DNA of 64,000 nucleotides from Wickerhamiella versatilis (GCA_030867685.1 JAQOWU010000008.1:868001-932000); one strand, 5' to 3'. Positions 6,840 to 10,067 are shown, numbered from the stretch's first letter. Program-made: numbers and translations. Notes: generated by a model from the sequence alone, not told the origin.

Positions 6840-8432
6840 TTACTCCTCCTCCTTCTTTACCCCACTGGTGGCCATACGGAATGCATTGTATGATCGGATC
6901 TTGCTGTCCTGGAAGTCAACAATCGGCTCGGGATAGCCCAACTTCTCAAACTCTGCTCGAGATAAGCGTTTTGAGGGCTCAAAAATCGCCTTTCCATTTA
7001 ACTCTCTTAACTCTGGAACCCATTTGCGAATATATGTACCATCTGGATCGCATTTTTCACCCTGAATCACGGGATTGAACGTAGTGTAACTCGGTTCCCA
7101 TCCAAATGAGTTATTCGCGTGATCCCAATCTATCAAATTTTCCGCGAAAAATCGTGCCCCACGTCTATAGTCAATAAGAAGATTGTTTTTTAAGAAACTT
7201 GCAACGTTCATGCGAAGTCGATTGTGCATATATGCCTCTGACTGGAGCTGACGCATTCCGGCGTCAATGAAAGGAAATCCAGTAGTACCATCACACCAGC
7301 TTTTCCATTTTTTCTCTGAATCATCGCTTGTGTCCCAGATGACATTGTCAAACTTAAGGTTCTGAGGTAGATTCATGGCTATATGAGGGCATATGGAAAT
7401 CATCTGGCGATAGAATTCTCTAAACACGAGCTCGCGTACCCATGCCCAAGCACCTCCACTACCGGAAAGCATCTTCTTGTGTCCGTCTTTCACTTCTTCC
7501 GCGACTGTGCTGAGCGCCTCGCGGACACCTAGACTACCTATCGCAAAGTACGGGGAGAGGCGGCTACTATTTTCGGTTGCTGGGGTAGACCTTTCACTAC
7601 CATAGGTGCCAATTTGTTTTGATAGAAATGATTTCAATCGTTTTATAGCAGCATCATGTCCTGCAGGCCAAATCTTTCTGATCTTGTCACGTTGATCCGT
7701 GCTCCTAAACTGTAATGCTTCGGGTATTTTGAATTCTGTATCTGGCAGATCAGGCTCATCCTCATTCCCTTTTGGCGGTGGTTCTGGCTTGTATAGCTGG
7801 GGGCGACGTGAAACCTCTGACGACCACCTCTCGTGGAATCTTGAGAATACCTTACATGGTGTTCCATTGGCTGTAACCACGGTACATGGCTCAATGACTG
7901 TTTGGTCATGCAGCCCAAGAAAAGTACATTCATTTCCCAGTACTTCAAGTACCCGGATGTCGCGCATTAATTCATCATACTCGTACTGAATGTTTGCATA
8001 GATGTGGCTAACATCGTATTTCTGTGCAATATTCCGAATTTCCTCCGCTTGCTGATCCTTTTTGTCTAGCGTGACTCCAATAAAGGGGATTTTCAGTCCT
8101 TTTAGTTTTTCCTTTAGTTCTCGAAGCGTCTCGACAAGAAAGTCCGTCTTTGCTGCACTCCATCCATGCCACTCAAGCTCCTCGGGCACAAAGAGATAAC
8201 AGGCGAGAAGTGTTTTTCCTGATTTACGTGCTTTCTCCGAGGCTCTGGCTAACGCACGATTGTCTTCTATTCTCAGATCACCGGTACGAAACCAGTGTAA
8301 AACATTGCGAGTCTTCACATCTTTTGCAAAAGCAAACCCAGTCTTGAGCTGCTCAAGCGGTAAATTCTCGTCTATTTCTCTGGCTCGTTTTAGTGTAGGA
8401 TGCCTCAACGCTTGGCCCGCCGTGCGCTTCAT
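6840..8432 (-). CDS. PHR1: DNA photolyase/cryptochrome family protein (class I CPD-like, atypical)
   Basis: HWFRTGDLRIEDNRAL, SRLSPY, TGFPFIDAGMRQL, MHNRLRMNVASFL, YIRKWVPEL. First ATG is at 8432. Confidence 0.9.
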   Translation of the reverse strand: MKRTAGQALRHPTLKRAREIDENLPLEQLKTGFAFAKDVKTRNVLHWFRTGDLRIEDNRALARASEKARKSGKTLLACYLFVPEELEWHGWSAAKTDFLVETLRELKEKLKGLKIPFIGVTLDKKDQQAEEIRNIAQKYDVSHIYANIQYEYDELMRDIRVLEVLGNECTFLGLHDQTVIEPCTVVTANGTPCKVFSRFHERWSSEVSRRPQLYKPEPPPKGNEDEPDLPDTEFKIPEALQFRSTDQRDKIRKIWPAGHDAAIKRLKSFLSKQIGTYGSERSTPATENSSRLSPYFAIGSLGVREALSTVAEEVKDGHKKMLSGSGGAWAWVRELVFREFYRQMISICPHIAMNLPQNLKFDNVIWDTSDDSEKKWKSWCDGTTGFPFIDAGMRQLQSEAYMHNRLRMNVASFLKNNLLIDYRRGARFFAENLIDWDHANNSFGWEPSYTTFNPVIQGEKCDPDGTYIRKWVPELRELNGKAIFEPSKRLSRAEFEKLGYPEPIVDFQDSKIRSYNAFRMATSGVKKEEE

Positions 8433-8873
8433 GATCCGCAATCTTACGTTATTTCAGAGATATATGTTGCTATTCATTATTTCATTTATTGCTCTATCTA
8501 GCATGCCCTAGAAATGAATAATCCAATCAATTGCGATCCAGGCTATCTATGTCGCGGTGGTGGTCACTGCAAGAATCAGGCCGAAAAGCAATAAGATAAG
8601 ATGTCAAATCATATATCATAAGATATCATAAGCCCATCTATAAATAACACATGCATCCACTTATATCTACTTAGATCAAAAAACTAAAGCATGCCTAGCT
8701 ATAACCGTCTGAGACAGCAAAGTCAAAAAAAAAGAATAAAATTGCGGTTACGTGGGATCGTCATACCAGGGTAGGCCAGGTCAAGAATCCGATAACAATG
8801 GAAGCGAAAAAAGGACAATTCACCAAATCTAGGACTACAGACAGTTTAACTAAATCAAGACATATAAAATAGT

Positions 8874-8910
8874 GGGCTCGGCTCAATCCAGCATCATTGC
8901 ATCACTGCCC
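8874..8910 (-). promoter_or_regulatory. Predicted tandem kink-turn RNA element in the SNU13 3' UTR
   Basis: mRNA sense: GGGC-AGU-GAU-GC-AAU-GAUG-CUGGA-UUGA-GC-CGA-GCCC. Two 3-nt bulges, each followed by tandem G.A/A.G pairs. Confidence 0.7.
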
Positions 8911-8958
8911 TCCAAAAAAGATTACACAGGCTACCTGCTTAATATCGCACAAGCCGAA

Positions 8959-9342
8959 TCAGATGAGAAGACGCTCTATCTTGTCCCTCAGAGCGTAGAT
9001 CTGGTCCTTGATCTGTGAAGCATCGTTCGAGGTGACCGAAGCTGCGACAACTGGTCGGGAAACACCACAAGCGTTGCCCAAAGCGACTTTCGACGGAACA
9101 AAGATATAAGGCACATTCTTATCCTCACTGAGAAGAGGCAGGTGAAGCACAATTTCAATAGGCTCAGCATCAGCAGCCATCACAACGAACTCTGCAATTC
9201 CGCGATTCAGAGTTTTAGTGGCCTCATTCGCACCTTTCTTTAGCTGGCGAAGATGGGTTGCCTGTCTTATTATATCCAAAAGCTGCTGGGTAGTACCGGC
9301 GTCTGCCAAGGGAAATGCACGAGAGTCTGGAGCACTGCTCAT
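8959..9342 (-). CDS. SNU13: Snu13/15.5K, L7Ae-family kink-turn-binding protein
   Basis: [44 protein letters not shown] end. Confidence 0.98.
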
Positions 9343-9355
9343 ATTGGTAGAAAAC

Positions 9356-9373
9356 TGAAAAAAATATCGATGA
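9356..9373. promoter_or_regulatory. RRPE-like plus PAC-like (ribosome biogenesis) motif pair upstream of SNU13
   Basis: TGAAAAAAATATCGATGAG: a TGAAAAA tract directly followed by CGATGAG, 14-31 nt upstream of the SNU13 ATG. Confidence 0.5.
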
Positions 9374-9447
9374 GTCAGAAGTGACAGTGGACTGCTTAGT
9401 CGCTTGTCCTCGCAACTCTGCGTAGTCAGCAGTACTATTAGCTATTG

Positions 9448-9942
9448 ATGTCTTCTACGACGAGTGACCTGTGCCCGGTCTACGCCCCCTTCTTTGGTGC
9501 TCTGGGTTGCACCGCCGCCATAGTGTTCACTTGCTTCGGTGCCAGCTATGGTACAGCAAAAGCCGGCGTTGGTATCTGTGCCACTACTGTGTTGCGCCCA
9601 GACCTTCTAATTAAGAACAGTATTCCTGTCATTATGGCGGGTATTATCGCTATCTATGGGCTTGTGGTATCTGTACTTGTCAGTGGTGGTCTCAAGCAGA
9701 GCCTCCCTCTTTATACCGGGTTCATCCAGCTGGGTGCCGGGTTGTCTGTCGGGCTCAGTGGGTTGGCTGCGGGATTTGCTATCGGTATTGTTGGTGATGC
9801 AGGTGTTCGTGGTACTGCGCAGCAACCACGTCTATTCGTCGGAATGATCCTTATTCTGATTTTTGCAGAGGTATTGGGTCTTTACGGCCTTATTGTTGCA
9901 CTGTTGCTGAATACACGTGCGACACTTGATGTTAGCTGCTAA
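9448..9942 (+). CDS. VMA3: V-ATPase V0 proteolipid subunit c
   Basis: [43 protein letters not shown]. Confidence 0.97.
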
Positions 9943-10067
9943 GTCGATAGAAAAACGGACAACCGGACTAGAAAAACTAGGTGCAATCGGAATTGAACAT
10001 GTTTAGGTATCAGTATAGGTTATATGTTGCGTTATCAAAGTACACATGTGCACAGTGATAGGAGAGA

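Follow-up and report, generated by a model that had tools for sequence, protein, structure and literature searches.

A predicted nested double kink-turn in the SNU13 3′ UTR of Wickerhamiella versatilis, probably a relocated and doubled Snu13 feedback element

The SNU13 mRNA encoded in a 64,000-nt stretch of the Wickerhamiella versatilis genome (referred to as the window) carries in its 3′ UTR a 37-nt hairpin that can be drawn as two nested kink-turns, and similar turns are found in the 5′ leaders of Snu13 genes from other organisms. Taken together, the results make it probable that the hairpin is a Snu13 feedback element that has been relocated to the 3′ UTR and doubled. Snu13 is a component of the spliceosome (through U4), of U3 and of the box C/D snoRNPs, and its free level therefore links splicing to ribosome production. 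In the searchable literature we found no description of how this level is set, and a kink-turn in the mRNA that is bound by its own product would, if true, be a simple answer.

The gene and its transcript occupy the following positions:

8959..9342, minus: SNU13 coding sequence, an intron-free ORF of 127 aa
8805..8958, minus: SNU13 3′ UTR, about 132-154 nt long, from the polyA RNA-seq run X13
8805..8827, minus: poly(A) addition sites, from X13 read ends
9348..9356, minus: SNU13 mRNA 5′ ends, from X13 loose ends; a transcript that starts here has a 5′ UTR of only about 6-14 nt
9343..9447, minus: SNU13 5′ intergenic region, 105 nt, complete and without a kink-turn

The product of the ORF belongs to the L7Ae family (Pfam PF01248, E 1.4e-26), and its best relatives in the PDB are yeast Snu13p (1zwz, E 8e-63) and human 15.5K (1e7k, E 7e-52). 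PMC1874613 names the residues that contact bulge position 3 and the phosphate of position 1, and E60, K85 and R96 of the window protein align, in ungapped ranges, with RNA-contact residues named there. The reading frame ends with a TGA codon at 8961-8959 (minus).

Transcript boundaries were taken from X13, a polyA RNA-seq run of a different strain under the same species label, most of whose reads are 95-99% alike to the window. Summed depth is about 750 in the bin 8886-8911, which covers most of the hairpin, and about 750-820 in the neighboring 3′ UTR and coding bins; it drops to about 6 below 8807. Poly(T) loose ends occur before 8807 in 18 reads, and read starts mark 81 molecules at 8827 and 13 at 8821. 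The original prediction placed the element in the mature mRNA and was open to refutation by a poly(A) site upstream of 8910. No such site was mapped in X13; depth is retained over the hairpin, and all mapped SNU13 3′ ends lie downstream of 8874, with the hairpin 47-70 nt 5′ of the mapped sites (8827, 8821 and about 8805). In this single RNA run the SNU13 mRNA is abundant and fully processed, read-through is below 1%, and there is no sign of regulated 3′-end use. At the other end of the transcript, loose ends were observed in 41 reads at 9348, 12 at 9355 and 70 at 9356; we take their consensus to be the template-switch oligo and these positions to be mRNA 5′ ends. Some X13 reads extend past 9360. 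A divergent neighbor, a proteolipid-like ORF of 164 aa at 9448-9942 (+), lies across the 105-bp intergenic region. Downstream of SNU13 on the same strand is a 530-aa ORF at 6840-8432 (-), presumably photolyase-like from an unaided reading of its sequence, and RNA depth between these two genes is less than 1% of that of SNU13.

The hairpin begins 48 nt past the SNU13 stop codon and is unique within the window. In the order of the mRNA, its parts and flanks are:

8874..8910, minus: the nested double kink-turn hairpin as a whole, from its letters, a descriptor and the top match of covariance model R1 (see below)
8911..8914, minus: outer-helix extension, 5′ strand, from folding, with a variable U-run directly upstream
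8901..8910, minus: outer turn, bulged strand, comprising helix I GGGC, bulge AGU, GA and U (3b)
8892..8900, minus: shared helix GC and inner bulged strand, comprising bulge AAU, GA, U (3b) and G
8887..8891, minus: terminal loop of 5 nt, from its letters
8881..8886, minus: inner turn, non-bulged strand, comprising U, U (3n), GA and shared helix GC
8874..8880, minus: outer turn, non-bulged strand, comprising C (3n), GA and helix I GCCC
8861..8873, minus: outer-helix extension, 3′ strand (8873-8870), overlapping the start of a UA-rich word

The minus strand from 8910 to 8874 is identical, letter for letter, to the sequence quoted in the original prediction, and the descriptor recovers the very same pairs that had been drawn for the double turn. 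Helix I of the outer turn consists of four Watson-Crick pairs (8910-8907 with 8877-8874) and is followed by the bulge AGU (8906-8904), the GA/GA pairs (8903-8902 with 8879-8878) and U.C (8901/8880). The next element is a GC/GC helix (8900-8899 with 8882-8881) that is shared between the turns, since it doubles as helix I of the inner one. The inner turn then continues with the bulge AAU (8898-8896), the GA/GA pairs (8895-8894 with 8884-8883), U.U (8893/8885) and G.U (8892/8886). Folding adds three further outer pairs past an A.A mismatch (8914-8912 with 8872-8870). The UA-rich word at 8871-8861 adjoins the hairpin, and the extended stem overlaps its first letters. Both turns are near matches to the box-C-like and box-D-like words that had been pointed out, in the order C, C, D, D. 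The descriptor permits four GA-GA registers in the hairpin, the one drawn and three others, and because of these alternatives the predicted occupancy by Snu13 may be 1:1.

The standard simple kink-turn is described in PMC5499556 as a 3-nt bulge followed by tandem G.A and A.G pairs, with a Watson-Crick C helix flanking, and both turns satisfy this definition at the sequence level. The nested arrangement is likewise that of a double kink-turn module, in which a single helix is at once NC helix to one turn and C helix to the following one, here 8900-8899/8882-8881. Determinants for binding by Snu13p, as listed in PMC1874613, are a 3-nt bulge with U at position 3 and A or G at position 2, tandem G.A/A.G pairs, a closing helix I pair, a U.U or other non-Watson-Crick third pair and a stable helix II; open K-loops are described there as not bound by Snu13. 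Both bulges (AGU and AAU) have U at position 3 and a purine at position 2, as Snu13p prefers, and the third pair is non-Watson-Crick in both turns (U.C in the outer, U.U in the inner). The bulge-closing pair is also present in both, as part of four Watson-Crick pairs plus the three-pair extension in the outer turn and of a helix I of just 2 bp, both Watson-Crick, in the inner one. Helix II of the outer turn runs from U.C into G-C and C-G and is stable; that of the inner turn is weak, consisting of U.U, a single G.U and the 5-nt loop. The minimal form of the inner turn is also seen in five conserved fungal-type leader turns, with U.U, one pair and a loop of 6-7 nt. Apart from this weak inner helix II, the hairpin fits the published sequence determinants for Snu13p and is a predicted binding site for the protein.

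Whether a kink-turn folds in metal ions alone depends on the residues at 3b and 3n. According to PMC6298567, turns without C at 3b or G at 3n do not fold in ions alone and fold upon protein binding, and the archaeal l7ae leader turns belong to this protein-dependent class. The 3b:3n pairs of the window hairpin are U:C (outer) and U:U (inner), with neither C at 3b nor G at 3n. At -1b:-1n both turns have C:G, which is reported in the same paper to favor folding. The prediction for ion-driven folding is mixed, with the 3b:3n rule against it and the -1b:-1n rule in its favor.

The rarity of the hairpin depends on how it is described. A loose nested descriptor finds one site in the window, where 1.17 are expected per 128 kb of dinucleotide shuffles, and the corresponding chance is about 1.4e-3 per 150-nt UTR; a single-turn descriptor matches the window 780 times. 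In a strict descriptor, the outer helix must have 4 or more pairs, each 5′ GA word must be preceded by U, the shared helix must be paired, and one or more pairs must stand above the third pair of the inner turn; the hairpin is its sole match in the window, and 1 match was found in 44,000,000 simulated nt. Since the strict rule was written after the site was known and was fitted to the observed quality of the hairpin, its true significance falls between the loose and the strict figures. Nearest-neighbor folding detected no excess stability over shuffles for the element or for the whole UTR (z +0.86 and +0.60). The absence of a folding-energy signal is expected because G.A pairs are not scored by the folding model.

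Comparative evidence comes from a metagenome scan covering 80 loci that encode Snu13 relatives of 55-80% identity. Of 63 distinct loci, 25 had a kink-turn in the 5′ leader, with transcription of these leaders assumed from position. All six loci closest to the window are included, and in these the turn lies about 4-52 nt ahead of the start codon. The original prediction had proposed in general terms that Snu13 may sense its own level through a kink-turn in its own mRNA, and these leader sequences lend the idea strong comparative support. When a Snu13-grade descriptor was applied to the 200 nt upstream of the start, 12 of 59 loci matched in sense and 4 in antisense, against a mean of 1.39 in shuffles (0 of 200 shuffles reach 12); about 1.4 of the 12 matches are expected by chance. 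A generic two-polarity descriptor without a bulge rule was rejected as too noisy (33 sense matches, 27 antisense, 12.7 in shuffles). No Rfam 15 family was found on the leader turns of the 8 loci searched. The turns occur in both hairpin polarities and were sorted into types:

L001-L007, L020, L026-L028, L053 and L054, sense, about 6-116 nt before the ATG: type (i), reverse polarity (for example, L002:1434-1467 and L026:1359-1391)
L011:1440-1469, L034:835-859, L029:1315-1353, L023:57-83, L025:43-70, L030:778-805 and L024:1129-1173: type (ii), forward polarity with an A.C or A.G third pair
L010:1452-1476, L012:1465-1489, L015:1465-1489, L016:1462-1486 and L021:1115-1140, 8-53 nt before the ATG: type (iii), minimal forward turns with U.U, one further pair and a 6-7-nt loop

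In type (i) the non-bulged strand CGAGC comes before a 4-53-nt loop that closes a two-pair helix I, and the bulged strand, GCAAGGAA or GCAGUGAA, follows. A two-word anchor that demands no flank pairing gave 15 upstream sense matches in 14 of the 63 loci and 3 matches elsewhere in the loci, and 13 type (i) loci have complementary flanks. These 13 rows were aligned with plain MAFFT after a second anchor position in L001 and the anchor in L034, neither with flank pairing, had been dropped. In the alignment 74.6% of cells pair, and in 8 of 10 pairs both partners vary. Covariation scores 0.312; shuffles give 0.158, with none of 500 as high, and sliding the partners gives no more than 0.219. Keeping only rows that have at least 2 flank pairs introduces a slight bias toward the first two pairs. 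Bulge position 3 is G, not U, in most type (i) loci, which may represent a deliberately weaker site. Forward leader turns are found upstream of intron-containing as well as other Snu13 genes; for example, the L024 turn lies in a tiny first exon; an ATG comes 15 nt after the turn, with a splice donor following. The L011 leader contains, by descriptor, two separate tandem kink-turn hairpins about 72 and 25 nt before the ATG, and judging from the sequence these may be an independent doubling of the site. A CUGAC word about 40-100 nt before the ATG was noticed by eye, in an uncontrolled comparison, in L017, L018, L045, L048, L055, L058, L063, L064, L068 and L069, which are GC-rich loci with no detected leader turn and no partner strand found for the word.

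The window hairpin is tied to this leader family by covariance model R1, whose training set was seven forward-polarity leader hairpins from other organisms. When the whole window was scanned with filters off, the top R1 match was 8874-8910 (-), with 18.5 bits and an E of 0.015, and the next reached 11.8 bits (E 1.4); the calibration of these E values is rough. Three forward turns (L023, L025 and L030) had been misplaced by two columns by MAFFT and were excluded from R1, which left them available as held-out cases. Among 32 untrained loci, R1 ranked the L023 leader first and the L024 and L025 leaders third and fourth, and it missed the L030 leader turn. With default filters, R1 and R2, a second model representing the reverse-polarity leader family, find just their training rows plus L015, whose hairpin is the same as a training row. 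R2 gave no match near SNU13, its best in the window (10.8 bits, E 2) being elsewhere. Within the hairpin, the outer turn resembles leader type (ii) and the inner turn type (iii).

By position the window hairpin stands apart from the family, being in the 3′ UTR and not in the leader. The leader of the window gene has no kink-turn detectable by descriptor in the 300 nt upstream, nor was one found in the 105-nt region 9343-9447. In a Snu13 protein tree of 52 rows, from which intron-split, short and identical rows were left out, the window pairs with L003 inside a seven-member set (support 88/86, not starred). All six other members of this set carry a leader turn, as do neighboring groups. The simplest history suggested by these sequences would be that the leader turn was lost and a doubled turn was gained in the 3′ UTR.

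Contigs from close lineages cover the region in part: X1 spans 8600-9337 with 33 substitutions, X2 spans 8877-9267 and X3 spans 8699-9013, and X2 and X3 carry the variants of X13. These are near relatives (about 95-97% identity), too close for a covariation test. Among the differences listed for the three lineages none falls within 8874-8910, and seven variable UTR sites lie outside the hairpin (8811, 8855, 8865, an insertion at 8913, 8944, 8950 and 8953). The probability that 0 of 7 sites fall in the hairpin is 0.14 for a UTR of about 151 nt, and a second invariant run of 43 nt is present at 8812-8854, so the invariance among close lineages is uninformative either way. Position 8865 is within the UA-rich word and is U instead of A in the mRNA of X13, X1 and X3, so that the word is not conserved there. 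Just 5′ of the hairpin, the U-run at 8914-8919 has one or two extra U residues (an A or AA insertion behind 8913) in all four runs.

Farther afield, the expectation that the 3′ UTR element would be conserved across budding yeasts was not borne out: the nested double turn is absent from all 60 distinct Snu13 3′ UTRs examined in the metagenome loci. Nothing comparable follows the stop codon in L001-L006, the intronless loci most similar to the window (72-80% identity). With no counterpart after the stop in these 60 3′ UTRs, the 3′ hairpin is lineage-specific, having been found only in Wickerhamiella versatilis and its near relatives. Single kink-turns are not enriched in the 3′ UTRs either, whether counted in sense over 58 UTRs (17, against 12.8 in shuffles and 14 in antisense) or in a second descriptor count (3 of 60, against 2.73). 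Seven nested matches elsewhere in the loci were discarded as one homologous site, far upstream on the opposite strand and not in a 3′ UTR. Box-C-like words are mildly over-represented in the sense strand of the Snu13 loci (11 versus 5.8 expected). Three loci without a detected leader turn, L036 and L044 (about 84-107 nt past the stop) and L022, have Snu13-grade 3′ UTR hairpins with a 4-pair helix I, a form seen in 3 of 60 UTRs versus 1.03 in shuffles. Between the L036 and L044 hairpins there is a single, compatible change (C-G to U.G).

The function that we consider probable for the hairpin is as follows. It would be a binding site for the Snu13 made from the same mRNA and a negative-feedback sensor of the free protein. 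Snu13 in excess of its RNA partners (U4, U3 and box C/D RNAs) would fold and occupy both turns, the outer being the stronger site and the inner a weaker one, like the minimal leader turns of other fungi. We infer the step from binding to repression. The most likely outcome would be less productive 3′-end formation or reduced stability of the SNU13 mRNA, because the main poly(A) site follows the hairpin at 47 nt and the hairpin stem runs into the start of the UA-rich word. Such an outcome would parallel the action of two U1A molecules on the polyadenylation inhibition element of U1A pre-mRNA, and we know of no U1A-type peptide in Snu13 that inhibits poly(A) polymerase. Granted the function, interference with 3′-end formation is the route we would put forward, with somewhat less than an even chance; RNP-driven nuclear retention or decay is plausible to a lesser degree, and cytoplasmic decay is rather unlikely. 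In evolutionary terms, the 3′ double turn would replace the single 5′-leader turn that is the common form in other eukaryotes; the lineage would have lost the leader turn, and measured from the mapped starts its leader is only 6-14 nt long.

Three other readings of the hairpin were weighed. It is very unlikely that we are looking at a chance GC-closed 3′ UTR hairpin that has four GA words in register and binds nothing specific. The frequency of matches to the loose nested descriptor (1.17 per 128 kb) and to the single-turn descriptor (780 in the window), a fold no stabler than shuffles and the lack of conservation past near relatives are all compatible with chance, and many windows were screened at the first stage, so a loose motif beside some SNU13 gene is expected. 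What argues against chance is the strict descriptor, with only 1 match per 44,000,000 nt, together with the fact that R1, trained on the SNU13 leaders of others, ranks the hairpin first in 64 kb (E 0.015). Moreover, SNU13 is the one gene for which such a motif is meaningful, and in the window it is without the leader turn that its six nearest relatives have. The same predicted-binding evidence, namely the determinants and R1, would serve equally well if Snu13 bound the hairpin for a purpose other than feedback on its own level, such as mRNA localisation, buffering or storage of Snu13, or hand-over to an assembly factor; the abundance and full processing of the mRNA in X13 fit this too. We regard this reading as unlikely, since the known relatives repress, archaeal L7Ae doing so through its own leader (PMC5539422, where L30 is mentioned), and the leader turns of other Snu13 genes, 4-52 nt before the start codon, are suited to blocking initiation.

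A further reading is that a larger particle of box C/D or U4 type, in which Snu13 is joined by Nop56/58 or Prp31, assembles on the hairpin, or that a different protein of the L7Ae family binds it; the mRNA might then be retained, might be trimmed, or might release a tiny RNA of box C/D type. The two turns come close to the words of box C and box D, bioRxiv preprints describe compact K-loop RNAs bound by 15.5K and box C/D-like RNAs of 20-50 nt in mammals, and NOP56 is reported to be controlled via snoRNP assembly on SNORD86 in its own pre-mRNA (PMC7038934). This reading is nevertheless improbable: the words run C, C, D, D and not C, D′, C′, D, a guide region is absent, there is no Rfam match even at E up to 10, and among the sites listed no read ends pile up at 8910 or 8874, in a polyA library that misses small RNAs. 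A box C/D snoRNA as such was ruled out by the C, C, D, D order within 37 nt, by size and by the lack of a model match; Rfam returned nothing relevant in 8000-10000 at E up to 10 and no family at gathering score in the whole window.

The feedback reading has, as was originally supposed, no precedent in print that we could find. A literature search returned no report of Snu13, 15.5K or NHP2L1 binding or regulating its own mRNA, and the main texts of fungal structured-RNA screens, whose supplements might hold weaker candidates, do not mention kink-turns, L7Ae, Snu13 or YEL026W. What is already known is kink-turn feedback by archaeal L7Ae, with yeast L30 mentioned alongside it, and snoRNP feedback on NOP56. 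If Snu13 feedback is true, the logic of archaeal L7Ae and yeast L30 extends to a third member of the family. A bolder and more tentative proposal, to which we give rather less than an even chance, is that the own-mRNA kink-turn is an ancient, near-universal L7Ae/Snu13 feedback device inherited from archaea and movable in position and polarity. Were that freedom real, repression would be independent of a start-codon block and would act irrespective of position, for example when an RNP assembling on the mRNA causes it to be kept in the nucleus or degraded. The window would then offer a natural experiment in which the sensor has apparently shifted from the 5′ leader to the 3′ UTR, allowing one to ask how a bound kink-turn represses an mRNA.

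The closest known sites by sequence are those of the U4 5′ stem-loop, box C/D RNAs and U3 B/C (Clery et al. 2007, PMC1874613), with which the window turns share the bulge, the G.A/A.G pairs, the third pair and the closing pair; unlike them, the window sites are in an mRNA, are nested and have a minimal inner helix II. NOP56 autoregulation via SNORD86 (Lykke-Andersen 2018, via PMC7038934) is similar in that a box C/D core component is sensed by RNP assembly on a kink-turn RNA of its own transcript, but it employs a full intronic snoRNA and a splice-site switch feeding NMD, and is mammalian. In the U1A system, polyadenylation is blocked by two molecules of the protein bound to a bipartite mimic of the snRNA site in the 3′ UTR (Boelens 1993 and Gunderson 1994, via PMC6884704). 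As proposed for Snu13, an snRNP protein there has, in its own 3′ UTR and near the poly(A) site, a two-part structured copy of the site it binds in its snRNA; U1A differs from Snu13 in being an RRM protein that inhibits poly(A) polymerase by a dedicated peptide in a vertebrate system.

Archaeal L7Ae represses via a kink-turn in the l7ae 5′ UTR (Daume et al. 2017, PMC5539422, which mentions yeast L30 alongside), and the l7ae leaders are split between both hairpin polarities (Huang, Ashraf and Lilley 2019, PMC6298567). As in the window, the kink-turn is in the mRNA of its own binding protein and its 3b:3n class needs protein to fold; in the archaeal leaders and the eukaryotic leader family alike, whether the C helix or the NC helix is closed by the terminal loop depends on the species. 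The leader turns of the six loci nearest to the window would by analogy fit translational blocking as in archaea. Unlike archaeal l7ae, the protein is the eukaryotic paralogue Snu13, and the window element is doubled and in the 3′ UTR. It is inside the mature transcript of its own gene, as in autoregulatory kink-turns, but not beside the translation start, being 48 nt past the stop; this distance from the start codon excludes a simple block of ribosome binding as its mechanism. For the nested architecture itself, the counterpart is P12 of euryarchaeal RNase P RNA, a double kink-turn that binds two copies of L7Ae, modeled without steric clash (Lai et al. 2017, PMC5499556). In both cases one turn uses as its C helix the NC helix of the turn before it; the shared helix has three pairs in RNase P and five layers in the window (G.A, A.G, U.C, G-C and C-G). 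The RNase P module is ribozyme architecture with L7Ae and the window element is mRNA with Snu13 as its predicted ligand, which would make the window a eukaryotic case of the nested double kink-turn, for which the reports to date come from archaeal RNase P RNA.
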